A DNA stretch of 20,061 bases from a virus, in the UHGV virus genome UHGV-0175271; one strand, given 5' to 3'. The stretch's first letter is position 1. Every line of letters starts with the position of its first letter. Shown here in pieces: positions 14,331-19,663 of this stretch. The notes under the pieces are model-generated. The model was not told the DNA's origin. It worked only from the letters and a program-made list of their open reading frames with translations, and searched no databases. The translations under genes were made by a program, and so were the position numbers.

Positions 14331-14786
14331 TTATCCAATCAGGTTTTCCGTGGCTTCCGCTTCCAGATACGGCACACCGTTGATGTTGACGAACTTCGGA
14401 CTTGTCACGAAGTATTTGATTTTATGCGTGGACACACTGCCACCCTTCGGATCACCATCCAGAACGCTGTTGAGCTGCAGCTTGTTACCAAAGGTTTCCA
14501 CCTTCATTTCTTCTCTGCCGGCTTTGGCGTAAAAAAGGAAGTCAACCGGAGGAATGCCACGCCATGACCCCGCTGAACGGGCTTTGGCTGTCAGAACCTG
14601 CAGCACTTTGGAACTGACTTCAATTTCACCCTCGGCGGCAACATCACCGTCCACATACCCGTCAGGGACACCGCGCGTCTGTGCCGCCGCGCTGTTATCG
14701 GTGATATCCAGCGAAATTTTTTCAATGTGGATCAGGTCGCCGTCCAGATAGATGTCAAAGGACATCCCTGAAATACGTTTGGTCAT
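14331..14786 (-). CDS. Tail tube protein (FII-like position)
   Basis: 151-aa ORF with an ATGA overlap to the sheath gene stop. Assigned from the sheath, tube, chaperone, tape measure order; no direct similarity to P2 FII. Confidence 0.6.
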   Translation of the reverse strand: MTKRISGMSFDIYLDGDLIHIEKISLDITDNSAAAQTRGVPDGYVDGDVAAEGEIEVSSKVLQVLTAKARSAGSWRGIPPVDFLFYAKAGREEMKVETFGNKLQLNSVLDGDPKGGSVSTHKIKYFVTSPKFVNINGVPYLEAEATENLIG

Positions 14787-15910
14787 GCGCTGGCCTCCAG
14801 ACTTGCATCCAGTAACAGACTGATGGTGAGCTGCAGCGGTACTTCATACGTACGCACCACAATGTAAATATCCACCGCCTTTTTGTTCTTCCAGACAATG
14901 GTCACGTCACCGTCCTGTGGGGGTTTCACCTCGCCCGGAAATGACACGCCGTTAATGCTGGCCGCAGTGGACATTTCCCGCAACGGACGGGCAAACAGCG
15001 TCTGGTGTGCGGCAATACTGCCCGGTGTACTGTTAAGTGAGCGATCGGCAATCTTACCGATGGCCAGCAGACGGACGCGGCGTGCTGCCTTATCCACAAT
15101 ACGCAGCGTCTCGATGGACTGGTAATCACCGCCCTCAACGTCCAGCGTGCGCCCGTCAGCCCAGTAAAAGCCGTCATAGTCCGGATACCACATCGGCACG
15201 CTGTAGCGTTGAGCTTCCAGCGCCTGAAGGGTCGCCAGTTCCAGCGTTTCGCCGGCACCGTCTTTCGGCAGTTCATCGCTTCCCAGACTCAGCAACGCGC
15301 CTGTTTTCACCCGCGCCGGACTGTCGGCGATGGTGACCGCACGGTTGCAGAGACGGCCGGCCAGCACGCCCGGTTCATTCCCCCAGAGACGGGGTACCAG
15401 CTGTACCGCTTTTTCCGCGATACCTTCCTGAAGGGTGGACAGACGCACCAGATAATCCGCCTGGGCTTCATCCTGCTGCACCCCCTGAACCGCCAGAATG
15501 AACCACACCCAGCGCCCATATTTAGCAATCAGTTCAGATCGCAGCGTTGCCGCCTGGTTAATCTGCGCTTTCGCGGCCACATCATCAGACAGCACCACAC
15601 CTTCCACCGAACAGGAGACCTGTGCGGCCTTAACGGCCTCCACCCATGCCCCCGGCTCACTGTCTGCGGCCAGCACATGAACAAATCCCCACCAGTTCTG
15701 GCCGGCGTTCGCCAGTGCGGCCAGCACATCACTTTTTAACGGGCTGTCACCCTCGCCCAGCAGCGCATCAAAATCACTCTGTGCGTTAACTGCCAGCGTC
15801 TTACCTACATTTTTGGTTCCCGTACCGATAAACAGCAGCGTGCGCTCCACTTCCGTGGTTTCACCCAGCAGCTGATTTACCTGGTTTACGGTCACAATTG
15901 GCCAGGTCAT
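14783..15910 (-). CDS. Tail sheath protein (FI-like position)
   Basis: 375-aa ORF, ATGA-coupled to the flanking genes and directly upstream of the tube gene; the baseplate J gene downstream implies a contractile tail. Assigned by synteny. Confidence 0.6.
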   Translation of the reverse strand: MTWPIVTVNQVNQLLGETTEVERTLLFIGTGTKNVGKTLAVNAQSDFDALLGEGDSPLKSDVLAALANAGQNWWGFVHVLAADSEPGAWVEAVKAAQVSCSVEGVVLSDDVAAKAQINQAATLRSELIAKYGRWVWFILAVQGVQQDEAQADYLVRLSTLQEGIAEKAVQLVPRLWGNEPGVLAGRLCNRAVTIADSPARVKTGALLSLGSDELPKDGAGETLELATLQALEAQRYSVPMWYPDYDGFYWADGRTLDVEGGDYQSIETLRIVDKAARRVRLLAIGKIADRSLNSTPGSIAAHQTLFARPLREMSTAASINGVSFPGEVKPPQDGDVTIVWKNKKAVDIYIVVRTYEVPLQLTISLLLDASLEASA

Positions 15911-16611
15911 GCTCTCCCCCTGATATCCTGCGCGTTAACATCCCAGCCGAACCCGATAGCCTGCAGCTGTCGCGCCAGCGCTTTGTTAAAATCATCCTGA
16001 CCTATCCCCAGAAACGCCCTGGCAGGTAAATCAATCTGCCAGGACGTTTTGACCGGTTTGTCCTCCAGTATCCGGATAAGCAAACCTGCCTGTCTGGCGG
16101 TCATCCTTTCCTGTATTTCCTTATAACCGGGCTTACGCCAGCGCTTACCGCGCCTGACTTTATACCCGGCCTTGCGCAGGCGTTTCGCCTGTCGCAGTGA
16201 TGCAGGCTTGTCCCCCTGCTCACGGCCTTCCACCTGCTTACGGTTGACGGTCACGTTCATGCCGTTCTGCTGGACATACCCCACCACGCCGGCTGGCAGA
16301 TTTCCCTTCGCATTCCGGTAATGACCACCGGCCAGATACAGCCTGACTGACTCCGTTTCAGGCATTTCCCGGATGCGGATCAGTTTCGGCATATTGCGCA
16401 ACATTTTGCCTTTACGCCGGGTCTGTCGCCCCGGCCACTTATCCCCCTCCGGCGACTGCTGATTACGCACATTACGCTTTGCTGCAGCTTCCACGCCGTA
16501 TTTCGCCATACGCCACAACAGCCGGCGACGTTTCGCAGAAGGTAAATCCAGCTTTTTCAGCGCGTCCTGGAGCTGGCGGAACTGTTCCTTGTTCAGCTCG
16601 CCATTTATCAT
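15907..16611 (-). CDS. Phage virion morphogenesis / tail completion protein (P2 gpS-like)
   Basis: 234-aa basic ORF with family-like motifs QSPEG..W, RKGKMLR and LPARAFLGI..DD. ATGA-coupled on both sides. Confidence 0.6.
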   Translation of the reverse strand: MINGELNKEQFRQLQDALKKLDLPSAKRRRLLWRMAKYGVEAAAKRNVRNQQSPEGDKWPGRQTRRKGKMLRNMPKLIRIREMPETESVRLYLAGGHYRNAKGNLPAGVVGYVQQNGMNVTVNRKQVEGREQGDKPASLRQAKRLRKAGYKVRRGKRWRKPGYKEIQERMTARQAGLLIRILEDKPVKTSWQIDLPARAFLGIGQDDFNKALARQLQAIGFGWDVNAQDIRGRA

Positions 16612-17090
16612 TCCTGCCCCTCACTGACCGGGATCACCGTCACCTCATCAGCCGTCCAGACTTCGGGATTTGCCAGCTTCCAGCGCTGACCATCAAACGG
16701 GATCTGGCCTTTGGGATCGGGAACCAGATTCAGCTCCTCAACCATTGGCAGCGTCACCACCATAATGGCGGTTTCCTGGTCGATGGTTTCGATATCAAAT
16801 TCCGGCAGCTCGGCGTCAATGCCGGTTTCCTCAAAGAGCGTGCGTTCATCCTGGCAAAGCCACGACATAAACAAAGCCATCAGGATTTTGGGATCGTGCT
16901 CACGGTAGGGATAACGCTCCCACGTCAGCACGGCGTTATAACGGATGATGGCAATGCGGTACTGCCCCAGCCCGGTGTCCCGCTGTGCCGGGATGAACGC
17001 GATCTCGTCCATCTGGCTGTCAAAACCCTGCATTGCCCGTCTGGGCATGTTGGCAATGAGAAAATCGGTTAATTCCGTTAACTGGCTCAT
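16608..17090 (-). CDS. Tail completion protein (gpR-like position)
   Basis: 160-aa acidic ORF between the head-completion and gpS-like genes, ATGA-coupled. Assigned by position only. Confidence 0.45.
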   Translation of the reverse strand: MSQLTELTDFLIANMPRRAMQGFDSQMDEIAFIPAQRDTGLGQYRIAIIRYNAVLTWERYPYREHDPKILMALFMSWLCQDERTLFEETGIDAELPEFDIETIDQETAIMVVTLPMVEELNLVPDPKGQIPFDGQRWKLANPEVWTADEVTVIPVSEGQE

Positions 17091-17539
17091 ATCATGGCCA
17101 CCGTGATGCGTTTCAGCCCTTTGATGCGGCGTACCGCCAGTGTGGATTCAGCAATCAGGCTGGAGCGGGTTTCGTCACTTTCCTGCCCCGGATGGCTCTC
17201 ACGACGACCAACAGACGCAAATTCGCCCATCAAATCAGCTTTGGCACGGGCATACACCGCCTTGCAATAACGGGCGCACAACAGATTTTCGCCTTCAATT
17301 TCCACGCCCGGAACGTCCGCCGCGCTCTCATGGCCAGCACTGCGATACCTTGCAGCCACACTGACCAGATCATCATTGATTTCACCGGCTGCAGTCAGCA
17401 GCGCCTGACGGATGGTAGCCGCATCGATATCGACCGGAATGGTGCGCTGGGACTGAAAATCCTTCACGCTCAGGTCTGGCCAGAAGCCATCATTCATTAG
17501 AATGGCATCGTCGAAATCAATGGAAGTTCCACTAAACAT
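17087..17539 (-). CDS. Head completion/stabilisation protein (P2 gpL-like position)
   Basis: 150-aa ORF with its own SD (GAGGG), first gene after an intergenic gap following the gpM-like gene and moron. Assigned mainly by the N-M-L synteny of P2-type heads. Confidence 0.5.
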   Translation of the reverse strand: MFSGTSIDFDDAILMNDGFWPDLSVKDFQSQRTIPVDIDAATIRQALLTAAGEINDDLVSVAARYRSAGHESAADVPGVEIEGENLLCARYCKAVYARAKADLMGEFASVGRRESHPGQESDETRSSLIAESTLAVRRIKGLKRITVAMI

Positions 17540-17636
17540 GCGCCCTCACACCCGATATTGATCACAGCATTAACTTAATAATTTTTAAGGAAATAACTCA
17601 GAAAAAAAAGCTAATTACTGACTTATTGATCTGAGT

Positions 17637-17701
17637 AAAAAAAGCGGGCTGGCCGGTTTCCACGGGCAATACGCTTATGCGATCCCCTCCACCGCGCCCG
17701 C
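17637..17701 (-). terminator. Candidate intrinsic terminator downstream of the 63-aa moron (GCGGGC...GCCCGC stem with large loop, then U7)
   Basis: Minus strand reads GCGGGC, about 46 nt, GCCCGC, then TTTTTTT (plus-strand A7 at 17637-17643), 17 nt past the moron stop. The large loop makes efficiency uncertain. Confidence 0.4.
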
Positions 17702-17717
17702 TTTCGGGTCGGTAGTC

Positions 17718-17909
17718 TTACTCGCCGCGTTTTGCGGCCTGAATCTCACCTTCTTCAAACCACGCATCAGATGCGCGACCGTCAGCAGTCTGATAGTGGA
17801 TCAGATACTGATTGCAGCTGTTGGTGTACTCCGCACGGGCTTTGATATGCCCCTCTTCGCCGCTAATGGAAACTTCAACAACCTGGCCTAACTCATGCTT
17901 AAACGACAT
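17718..17909 (-). CDS. Small hypothetical protein (moron) inserted between the terminase-subunit and head-completion genes; possibly DUF2158/YodC-like
   Basis: 63-aa ORF with ATG 1 nt after the gpM-like stop and an AGGAG SD. The pattern G.VVEV.ISGEEG.I......YLIHY...DG....WFEEGEI resembles small YodC-type proteins from memory. It is followed by a terminator-like structure and about 180 bp of AT-rich spacer. Confidence 0.5.
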   Translation of the reverse strand: MSFKHELGQVVEVSISGEEGHIKARAEYTNSCNQYLIHYQTADGRASDAWFEEGEIQAAKRGE

Positions 17910-17910
17910 A

Positions 17911-18624
17911 TCAAACTCCTGTAGACTCTTTTTTCAGCGCCCGCAGACGCGCAGCGATACGCTGCAACATCGTGCCGACACCACATTTAGGGTCGAATCC
18001 CTTCGCCTGCTCCAGCAGTTCCTTCGCCCGGAGCAATACTTCCCTGTCTTCCGTTGCCGCTGCGCGTGGCTCTCCGTTTTCATCCCGCAACAGGTGCAGA
18101 CCGGCAAACTTCAGGTATTTGGCCTTAATGACCTCATACACATTCCAGTGCTGCGCCACGTTCTCCAGCGTGCGGCCGAAATACGGCTCCACATCATGTC
18201 CCTGCACGGCTTCCGCTTCCGCCCAGGACAACACCGTATCCGCCACAAACACCGGGAACGTACTGCCGAACGCGGCCGGGGTTTCCTGCCCCCGCTGGAT
18301 TGCCACATCCGCCCAGTCCAGCGCCTGGTCAAACTGGCCTGTATCAAACAGCCAGACGACACACCAGGCAAAAACGGGATTCTGTTGCACACTGTCACCT
18401 TCCAGCCAGGATTGCGCAGTCGGCATCCAGCGCGGTAACAGCACATCACGCTTAAATTCCATGCGCTCAGCGCGGCTTTCAATCGCTGCGGCCGCGGCGA
18501 CATCTTTCTCCAGCGCGACAATCTGAATATGCAGGCTGGTTTCCGTGTCCAGAGACTGCTGCTGTCGCAGTAACCGCTCCGCTTCAATTCGTGCGCTGTG
18601 GCGCTGTGCCGGTGACAGTTGCAT
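17911..18624 (-). CDS. Terminase endonuclease (small) subunit, P2 gpM-like
   Basis: 237-aa ORF with an AAGGGGAA SD. The N-terminus (MQLSPAQRHSARIEAE...) and overall layout resemble P2 gpM as I recall it; it follows the capsid gene as in P2. Confidence 0.7.
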   Translation of the reverse strand: MQLSPAQRHSARIEAERLLRQQQSLDTETSLHIQIVALEKDVAAAAAIESRAERMEFKRDVLLPRWMPTAQSWLEGDSVQQNPVFAWCVVWLFDTGQFDQALDWADVAIQRGQETPAAFGSTFPVFVADTVLSWAEAEAVQGHDVEPYFGRTLENVAQHWNVYEVIKAKYLKFAGLHLLRDENGEPRAAATEDREVLLRAKELLEQAKGFDPKCGVGTMLQRIAARLRALKKESTGV

Positions 18625-18634
18625 TCAGTTCCCC

Positions 18635-19663
18635 TTATTCCCCTGCAGGTGGCGCGACCGGTGCCCCGATAGTTACCGCACTTTCATCAAACGCGGCGTA
18701 CAGTTCCGGATACTCAACCGCATAACCTTCGTTACGCAGGTATTTGTTTTCGTACTGTTTACGGTCTTCCACAAACTCAGCCTTACGCTGGCGCGTGCCG
18801 CGCTGGGTGTAGATGTGCAGATTCGGCAGCGTGGTGACGATCATACGTTTACCCGGCATGAACGGCGGAACGTATGCCGTGCGGCCGGCGATACTGTCAG
18901 ACAGCAGCTGCGCGGCGATCTTCTCGGTTGGCTTATCCGCTTTCTGGTACAGGCGGAAAGATTCAGCCGCCACAAGGTCAGCGCCGACCAGCACCACCAG
19001 ACGCGGGTCATTACGGTACTGTGCCGGAATTTTGGCGTTGATAAGGTCGGATGCCATCGCATCGAGCGAGACATAATCGCCTTTACCGTCACCATCGAGC
19101 ACCACCGAATCGGTGATAATCTGCTGGCCGTCCTTCCACTCTTTAACGATCTGATGCCAGCCCTTGTTCACATCTTCGCCGTTCGGGTTCTGCTCGGCGT
19201 CCGTGGTTTCCGCAATGGTTTTCCCGTTAAAGCCGATACGCAGCATATCCAGCGCAAATGACTGGTTGGTAAATTCCTGCACACGCTGGAAGAACTCACC
19301 TTCATCGCCAGCATTCGCCCAGACAGAAAGCAGTTGCCAGGTCAGCGCTGCACAGGAATCGGTTTCGACCAGCTTGTAGTCATTGCCGCTCACGCCCACT
19401 TTCTTACGGAAGCGGCCATCCAGCACGCGCCCGGTATACAGGCCAGAACTGCCGACCGGAACCACCTGCCCCTGTAACTGGTCAACATCAGCAACAGTGA
19501 TCAGATTCAGGAAATCAGACTGTTCCAGCAACGCGTTGCGCAATTGGGTCTCTTTCGGGTCGGTCAGCGCAAACCAGCGGTCATCTTCATTAGCACCGTA
19601 GGATTCACGCAGTCCGGTGTGGTACTGACGCAGAAACTGACGGGCTTTTGCATTCAATTGCAT
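18635..19663 (-). CDS. Major capsid protein, P2 gpN family
   Basis: 342-aa ORF with an AAGGAAAA SD. Several segments align to P2 gpN as I recall it (GDYVSLDAMASDLINAKIPAQYRNDPRLVVLVGADLVAAESF against GDYASLDALVMDATNNLIEPWYQEDPDLVVIVGRQLLADKYF, and the LPNLHIYTQ... region). Confidence 0.8.
   Translation of the reverse strand: MQLNAKARQFLRQYHTGLRESYGANEDDRWFALTDPKETQLRNALLEQSDFLNLITVADVDQLQGQVVPVGSSGLYTGRVLDGRFRKKVGVSGNDYKLVETDSCAALTWQLLSVWANAGDEGEFFQRVQEFTNQSFALDMLRIGFNGKTIAETTDAEQNPNGEDVNKGWHQIVKEWKDGQQIITDSVVLDGDGKGDYVSLDAMASDLINAKIPAQYRNDPRLVVLVGADLVAAESFRLYQKADKPTEKIAAQLLSDSIAGRTAYVPPFMPGKRMIVTTLPNLHIYTQRGTRQRKAEFVEDRKQYENKYLRNEGYAVEYPELYAAFDESAVTIGAPVAPPAGE

Follow-up and report, generated by a model that had tools for sequence, protein, structure and literature searches.

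How a gene of 63 codons comes to lie between two head genes that are neighbours in phage P2, and whether it brings its own transcriptional signals with it, is a question raised by the viral genome UHGV-0175271, of which a stretch of 20,061 nucleotides (hereafter the window) was analysed. Here a 63-residue open reading frame (ORF) on the minus strand (17718-17909), located by an ORF and PHROG scan and belonging to PHROG 8618, separates a gpM-like gene for the small terminase subunit from a gpL-like gene for the head completion protein. An earlier note, made from the letters of this DNA alone, had described the ORF as a moron with its own terminator, splitting the head gene cluster and leaving gpL in need of a new promoter. 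The reading that we consider likely is a different one, in which the ORF would be an optional, late-expressed cargo gene for a small barrel protein, housed in a slot of the junction, the hairpin behind it an RNA element of the phage backbone and the AT-rich spacer behind the hairpin a feature specific to the window.

Escherichia phage ESSI2_ev239, which belongs to the ESSI-2-like phages within the Peduoviridae, shares 96% identity with the window, and by this likeness the window is the late region of an ESSI-2-like prophage. Read along the minus strand, gpN and gpM come first, then the 63-residue ORF, a hairpin with a run of seven U residues (U7), 97 nucleotides of DNA of 33% GC and finally gpL. 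The TGA of gpM (17913-17911) is followed by one nucleotide and then by the ATG of the ORF (17909-17907), and an AGGAG Shine-Dalgarno (SD) sequence (17916-17920, minus strand), read directly within the 3' end of gpM, sits 6 nucleotides 5' of that ATG, just as had been described earlier. Behind the TAA of the ORF come the heptamer ACTACCG (17710-17716), the hairpin of about 64 nucleotides (17704-17641), a T7 tract (17643-17637) right behind its basal stem, the 97-nucleotide spacer (17540-17636) and the ATG of gpL; the hairpin and the U7 are thus also present in the sequence as claimed. The gap from the ORF stop to the gpL ATG measures 178 nucleotides, in agreement with the roughly 180 base pairs of AT-rich DNA that had been noted there, but only its last 97 nucleotides are AT-rich (33% GC against 52.5% window-wide), the first 81, which form the hairpin element, being 62% GC.

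The nature of the ORF is best approached by asking what related phages carry at the same place. Two samples were used, the first comprising 63 gpM-gpL junctions drawn from reference phages, from a set with one genome per species and from contigs of IMG/VR, all dissected by script, and the second consisting of contigs collected by searching for the hairpin instead of gpM, of which 103 could be classified. The 63-residue gene occupies 22 of the 63 junctions in the first sample, and in the second 85 contigs have an empty junction, 17 have the gene and one has other cargo. It is missing in two relatives (L008 and L009) whose gpM is 97% identical, and in Cronobacter phage ESSI-2 the slot is likewise empty. 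This comparison, which the earlier note had proposed as a check, therefore finds the gene patchy at the M-L junction and not universally present. Two of the contigs collected through the hairpin pattern, L081 and L160, contain neither gpM nor gpL, and the one inspected, L081, is a chance match in a GC-rich portal gene.

The segment that varies has sharp borders in the boundary alignment. On the left these are the last few codons of gpM, which differ between cargo-bearing and empty relatives, and on the right an invariant (G/A)CTACCG motif, represented in the window by the ACTACCG anchor of the junction alignment, whose CTACCG (17710-17715) is unchanged in all 24 distinct junction sequences and stands 8-9 nucleotides 5' of the hairpin. 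CTACCG can pair with the SD region of gpL over 3 base pairs only, and this pairing does not explain its conservation. At least three states of the slot can be distinguished: empty, filled by the 63-residue gene, and filled by an unrelated ORF of 83 residues. The gene itself exists as two alleles of 76% protein identity, between which 16 codon differences are synonymous and 15 non-synonymous. The 83-residue ORF (MPNGQHTHSVSV...) was observed in L024 (IMGVR_UViG_2035918000_000002, 2132-2383) and also in L192; the copy of L024 has no PHROG, NCBIfam or PADLOC match. Taken together, the junction comparisons argue that the 63-residue ORF is a real conserved gene, and that it is optional accessory cargo and not a universal structural component. 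A place in the core structure is further disfavoured because copies of 50-75% identity occur in phages with unrelated capsids and terminases and because the gene is missing in most close relatives. On the proposed mechanism, the slot between the gpM stop and the backbone hairpin would receive interchangeable cargo.

Does the cargo include the hairpin? With and without the 63-residue gene, the hairpin is found at virtually every relative's gpM-gpL junction, directly after gpM where the slot is empty. A covariance model trained on 24 distinct copies detects just one in the window (17632-17716) and recovers the hairpin in four junctions where a regular expression had missed it, and it has no match in P2 or beside the 63-residue gene in lambdoid and other contexts; in Morganella a different terminator stands behind the gene. 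The claim that the gene has a terminator of its own thus fails on both counts, since the hairpin stands in junctions without the gene and does not accompany the gene in phages of other types. By the same comparisons the hairpin is a selected element of the backbone of the gpM-gpL junction and lies outside the cassette.

These results bear directly on the possibility that the gene is an autonomous moron that is active in the prophage, in the service of lysogenic conversion or of defence modulation, closed by its own terminator and followed by a gpL transcribed from a new promoter in the AT-rich DNA. Its patchy occurrence among relatives, the hairpin and U7 behind it in the window and the AT-rich DNA 5' of gpL are all as such a cassette would predict. 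Against this, the hairpin occurs in relatives without the gene and is never carried along with it, the spacer is unique to the window and hence outside the cassette, consensus scans find no promoter-like site either 5' of the gene or in the spacer, and the protein has no PADLOC match, so that we regard this explanation as very improbable. What survives of the moron description is that the gene is accessory and patchy at the junction (22/63 and 17/103); the terminator of its own does not, and no promoter was detected.

If not from a promoter of its own, how might the gene be expressed? No sigma-70-like site was found on either strand between 14000 and 20061 by a consensus scan, which may miss weak or activator-dependent promoters, and such a lack is expected for an activator-dependent late operon of the P2 type. 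Because of the TGA-N-ATG junction and the SD inside gpM, translation of the gene is predicted to be coupled to that of gpM, and the gene most likely comes to expression late in lytic growth, from a transcript that would run through scaffold, capsid and terminase genes. Similarly, in lambdoid contexts an ordinary terminator lies just 5' of the gene, with no promoter-like site in between, an arrangement which suggests that there the gene is expressed only from antiterminated late transcripts. The idea of lysogenic conversion is accordingly disfavoured to the extent that consensus scans can be relied on: no own promoter was detected in the contexts examined, and the lambdoid copies, placed behind a terminator in the late transcript, point to late lytic expression.

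For gpL, too, the comparison with relatives is informative. In all of them the SD and ATG of gpL lie within 13 nucleotides of the U-tract, leaving no room for a promoter, and therefore gpL and the genes downstream would have to be transcribed through the hairpin, which argues indirectly against full termination there. The supposed need for a separate gpL promoter finds no support in this observation, and within the spacer itself (17540-17636) there is neither a sigma-70 consensus nor a TGT-N12-ACA activator site. The hairpin would then act at the level of RNA, as a partial terminator, as a stabiliser of the 3' end or as both, with read-through, and would reduce the expression of gpL, and of the tail and lysis genes behind it, compared with that of the head genes. 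It is best read as an attenuator and/or a 3' stabiliser of the messenger, a role predicted from its form and position.

The spacer, defined by junction comparison and composition, replaces a native segment of 13 nucleotides (CCGGAGAAACAGG) that carries the SD of gpL in relatives. It was found in none of the 62 other junctions nor in about 100 further contigs that bear the element; a search for its origin gave no blastn match in phages or E. coli genomes and no exact match in IMG/VR, and it contains no ORF and resembles neither the rest of the window nor the region of the ev239 P_O promoter. It holds the sequence GCTTTTTTT(A/T)CT(C/G)AG twice, and a GAGGG situated 5 nucleotides 5' of the ATG could be the new SD of gpL. 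To judge from these comparisons, the spacer is a replacement specific to the window and no part of the cargo cassette. A separate observation concerns the annotated gpL start of ev239 (NC_049392; L001 4038-4077), which RefSeq places 39 nucleotides upstream, at a GTG inside the conserved CCGTGGA of the hairpin. An N-terminal extension of gpL from this GTG was considered and rejected, as the length of the T-run differs among relatives (T5 to T7), which disrupts the frame, and the RefSeq start of ev239 is probably wrong.

The basal arms of the hairpin, AAAGCGGGC (17704-17696) and GCCCGCTTT (17649-17641), pair to a basal stem of 8-9 base pairs, above which come a second stem, the internal loop and then a third stem, with a variable hairpin at the apex. 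Its extent was defined by covariation, RNAalifold and the covariance model. The GCGGGC/GCCCGC of the basal stem stands directly before U7, the layout of a terminator; a simple terminator scan did not flag this hairpin, which is long, irregular and, at about 64 nucleotides, interrupted by internal loops. Of the cells in the alignment 98.8% are paired, a share that falls to 34-56% once the partners are slid, and compensatory changes occur in 5 of 14 pairs, one of which is seen in all four Watson-Crick forms. An independent fold by RNAalifold has the same helices and adds a pair that is GC in some sequences and CG in others. In the comparison with a distant clade the hairpin retains 72-76% nucleotide identity, as against 62-70% for the flanking coding DNA. 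Neither strand of 17400-18000 matched any Rfam family in a cmscan search (E up to 1). That the hairpin might be a P2-like cos site was also entertained; the cos of P2 lies near gene Q, which weighed against the idea, and it was ruled out since the compensatory changes preserve base pairing.

What, then, is the cargo protein? It matches PHROG 8618 over its full length in a hidden Markov model (HMM) search (E 1.2e-35), its residues 1-60 aligning with positions 1-60 of a profile of 61, and this family carries no functional label. Counted with E up to 0.001, the family comprises 1,231 clusters when these are drawn at 90% identity; at 50% identity, 1,329 representatives belong to it. The protein has no Pfam, NCBIfam or PADLOC assignment, no member of the family is named, and none of 30 diverse members scanned has a Pfam domain, the weak Pfam matches of the family being to Tudor-knot and SH3_4. 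It had been likened to the DUF2158/YodC type of small beta protein; the HMM search proposed for this likeness was run with hmmscan on the protein (E up to 0.1) and on the 30 members (E up to 1), and the model was never listed for either. An AlphaFold2 model built from an alignment of 30 sequences has a predicted local distance difference test score (pLDDT) of 90 and shows a five-stranded barrel, and the protein is acidic (isoelectric point 5.05, net charge about -5). On this model, the product can be described with confidence as an acidic single-domain beta-barrel of the SH3/Tudor-like kind. A sequence search of solved structures returned only the SH3 domain of PEX13, marginally (E 0.02), and the viral proteins that match in fold are without exception uncharacterised. 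Domain fusions were explored as a clue to function and gave none, the longer family members having no known domains. Profile matches in proteins of 900-5,900 residues (P0138, P0139 and others) were set aside as spurious and not homologous, these being surface proteins with Listeria-Bacteroides repeats, on which the profile lands 8-15 times per protein, each time on a single beta-hairpin.

The closest match of the predicted fold, by two structural methods, is the barrel of HspQ, and the modelled protein has the barrel fold of the YccV-like/HspQ family (PF08755; PDB 5ycq). HspQ activates Lon and inhibits ClpS (PMC6719616), and modulation of CLPXP by YccV-like domains is known from mitochondria (PMC7647994). 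One might accordingly imagine an HspQ-barrel mimic that would modulate an AAA+ protease pathway of the host, Lon or ClpS/ClpAP, late in infection, an idea with which the structural match, the activities of these relatives in fold and the acidity shared by HspQ and the phage protein would agree. A tie at the level of sequence was looked for and rejected (hhalign probability 2.6%, identity 18%), and PF08755 is not matched by the 30 family members, HspQ itself scoring E 1.2e-20. The C-terminal tail of HspQ, in the region of Lys96, governs its recognition of Lon (PMC6719616), and the phage protein stops about 5 residues past the barrel. From the profile probability of 2.6% and the missing tail we therefore take the modelled likeness to HspQ to be structural only, and modulation of the protease pathway seems to us an improbable function. 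The acidity fits the binding of protein better than that of nucleic acid, and the best, if weak, inference from the model is that the protein binds and modulates a protein partner, of the host or of the phage, rather than building the virion.

The wider distribution of the family shows how mobile such cargo may be. A 75%-identical copy lies between lysis and head genes in a Morganella prophage, versions of 98 residues lie between the lysis cassette and a DUF1441/GpA terminase in lambdoid prophages of E. coli, the genes L33 of phiP27 (whose product is 54% identical to the 63-residue protein), p31 of OS31 and phiBt-TXDOH_05 lie close to HNH and small-terminase genes, those of phiP27 and OS31 in the interval from the lysis genes to cos and the terminase, and in a further context a homologue is placed before genes of the ParB-like/terL type. 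Other copies, namely gp32 of Bcep176, gp35 of PhiJL001 and a gene of a Bordetella phage (PBb002), stand among small early-region genes. In Yersinia phage vB_YpM_44 (P44_00065; L005 3653-4366) the barrel is the middle module of a protein of 237 residues, the N-terminus of which matches the tail-fibre assembly family Caudo_TAP. As judged from these homologues, the gene moves horizontally and is found also in lambdoid and HK97-like prophages.

This recurrent neighbourhood invites the proposal that the protein assists packaging or head assembly, as a cofactor of the terminase or as a protein that is packaged and injected, which would explain its terminase-adjacent position in P2-like, lambda-like and HNH/HK97-like phages alike. 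The gene does adjoin packaging genes in most contexts (after gpM; before HNH/terS, DUF1441/GpA or ParB-like/terL), and its predicted co-expression with the late genes would be in keeping with such a role. It is, on the other hand, dispensable, most close relatives being without it, and proteins of 50-75% identity serve phages whose terminases and capsids are unrelated; moreover, the copies of Bcep176, PhiJL001 and PBb002 stand among genes of the early type, and the boundary between lysis and packaging genes is a generic site for cargo. A packaging function is on this evidence unlikely.

The reading of the junction as a cargo slot in front of a backbone hairpin has to be weighed against several points that tell against it. 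Promoters that are weak or depend on an activator would not show up in scans for a consensus. For the function of the protein the argument starts from a generic fold, which leaves the suggestion of protein binding a weak one, and the terminase-adjacent position in several phage types could point to a role related to packaging. In the window the native SD of gpL has been replaced, such that the regulation of gpL may differ here from that in relatives. The thermodynamic z-score of the hairpin is unremarkable (-0.5 to -1.5), and because of this the support for its structure comes from covariation and not from stability. Finally, the U-tract is degraded in some relatives, to CTATTTC or TTCCCATTTTG, and because the internal loop stays invariant even there, termination may not be the only role of the hairpin.

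That internal loop deserves attention in its own right. Between two covarying helices, an invariant GA on the 5' strand (17689-17688) faces (G/A)UG-GA on the 3' strand, which in the junction alignment of the window comprises the GUG bulge (17663-17661) and then GA (17660-17659), together 17659-17663. All loop positions are invariant in the 24 sequences except the first base of the bulge, which is G or A (AUG in one sequence), and in the L015 group the adjacent helix changes from GGG/CCC to GAC/GUC, fixing the register. A kink-turn consensus consists of a 3-nucleotide bulge and tandem G.A/A.G pairs, and folding induced by metal ions obeys a rule on the identity of the 3b.3n position (PMC4382518). 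In the hairpin the bulge is followed by tandem G.A/A.G between two helices, and 3b.3n is A.G, U.G or C.U in every variant, with either 3n=G or 3b=C and never both. The invariant loop hence fits the kink-turn consensus at the level of sequence.

Could the hairpin, then, be chiefly a processing or stabilising site of the RNase III type, or a kink-turn regulator of gpL translation bound by protein, and not an attenuator of transcription? The long irregular form with its conserved asymmetric loop, the invariance of this loop alongside the decay of the U-tract, the start of the gpL SD 2-4 nucleotides past the element and the agreement of every 3b.3n variant with the published folding rule would all suit a function of this sort. 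Most copies, nevertheless, keep 5-7 U right behind a GC-rich basal stem, the classic layout of an intrinsic terminator, no partner that binds kink-turns is known in these hosts, and Rfam offers no match, for which reasons we hold this alternative to be possible but doubtful. More speculative is the notion that a protein bound at the loop modulates the hairpin. Extended further, this leads to an undescribed kink-turn regulatory RNA, an attenuator or processing site modulated by protein, which might set the ratio of head to tail and lysis products and serve also as the fixed right-hand anchor for recombinational swaps of cargo, the anchoring being suggested because the hairpin is more conserved than the genes that surround it. 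We put this idea forward tentatively, the balance at present leaning away from it.

The remaining genes of the late region all lie on the minus strand. The P2-type major capsid gene gpN (18635-19663) precedes gpM (17911-18624; Pfam PF05944, Phage_term_smal, E 2.6e-38; phrog_74), and gpL, the head completion or head-tail adaptor gene (17087-17539; PF05926, Phage_GPL, E 2.1e-44; phrog_71), is followed by gpR (16608-17090), gpS (15907-16611) and the sheath (14783-15910) and tube (14331-14786) genes, gpN and the genes beyond gpL being likewise identified by Pfam and PHROG scans. Phages of the ESSI-2-like group are scarce in E. coli, with matches in 14 of 5,426 complete genomes, in agreement with PMC6969025.

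The consequences are several. Three errors of annotation are corrected, namely the DUF2158 label, the hairpin as terminator of the gene and the new promoter of gpL. A discrete gpM-gpL cargo slot with at least three states is defined for ESSI-2-like phages, and small proteins of a widespread family, with about 1,300 clusters, are recognised with confidence, on the strength of the model, as SH3/Tudor-like barrels and become reasonable candidates for screens of host-factor binding or anti-defence activity. The most interesting by-product is the covariation-supported hairpin with its kink-turn-like loop, absent from Rfam, which in addition delimits the cargo slot on its fixed side and could explain how P2-type phages tune expression within a single late operon. 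The whole amounts to an ordinary accessory gene beside a modestly interesting conserved RNA.

Set beside known systems, the gene is small phage cargo of a known kind. The moron concept goes back to the work of Hendrix and colleagues on lambdoid phages, and the gene resembles morons in being a small extra gene between conserved neighbours, patchy in relatives and common to unrelated phage types; it differs from them in having no detectable promoter, in that the hairpin downstream of it belongs to the backbone, and in appearing to be co-translated with gpM in a late operon. The closest kinship of the protein is with PHROG 8618, 1935 and 16275 (E 1.2e-35, 2.4e-20 and 6.9e-09), which include phiP27 L33 and Bcep176 gp32, are all three without an assigned function and count the protein as a direct member by sequence, although phiP27 L33 and the E. 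coli versions have an N-terminal extension of about 30 residues that is absent from the window protein. DUF2158/YodC proteins share with it a small size and a presumably all-beta composition but no HMM match, and HspQ, for all the likeness of the barrel, possesses an insertion of about 15 residues and a regulatory C-terminal tail that the phage protein does not have.

The RNA has its own parallels. Like a standard kink-turn of the Kt-7 type (PMC4382518), the loop combines a Watson-Crick helix, a 3-nucleotide bulge, tandem G.A/A.G pairs and a second helix with a non-Watson-Crick first position; unlike it, the loop is here known from sequence and covariation, and the host element is a terminator-like hairpin and not a riboswitch, ribosomal RNA or small nucleolar RNA. 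P2 itself provides the nearest comparison. The description of its gpM and gpL as adjacent is correct insofar as they are neighbours, but they do not abut, being separated by a gap of 99 nucleotides (NC_001895 5901-5999; L069 2902-3000) that contains a hairpin of -48 kcal/mol (z -3.9) followed by U4, and the P2 record annotates a single O operon through L to S, across this hairpin. The P2 hairpin is unrelated in sequence, undetected by the covariance model and without the GA/GA internal loop, yet it occupies the same position, in a gap of 99 as against 93-96 nucleotides, and is likewise a long GC-rich hairpin with a short U run within one late operon; a hairpin at the gpM-gpL junction thus seems to be general in the family.
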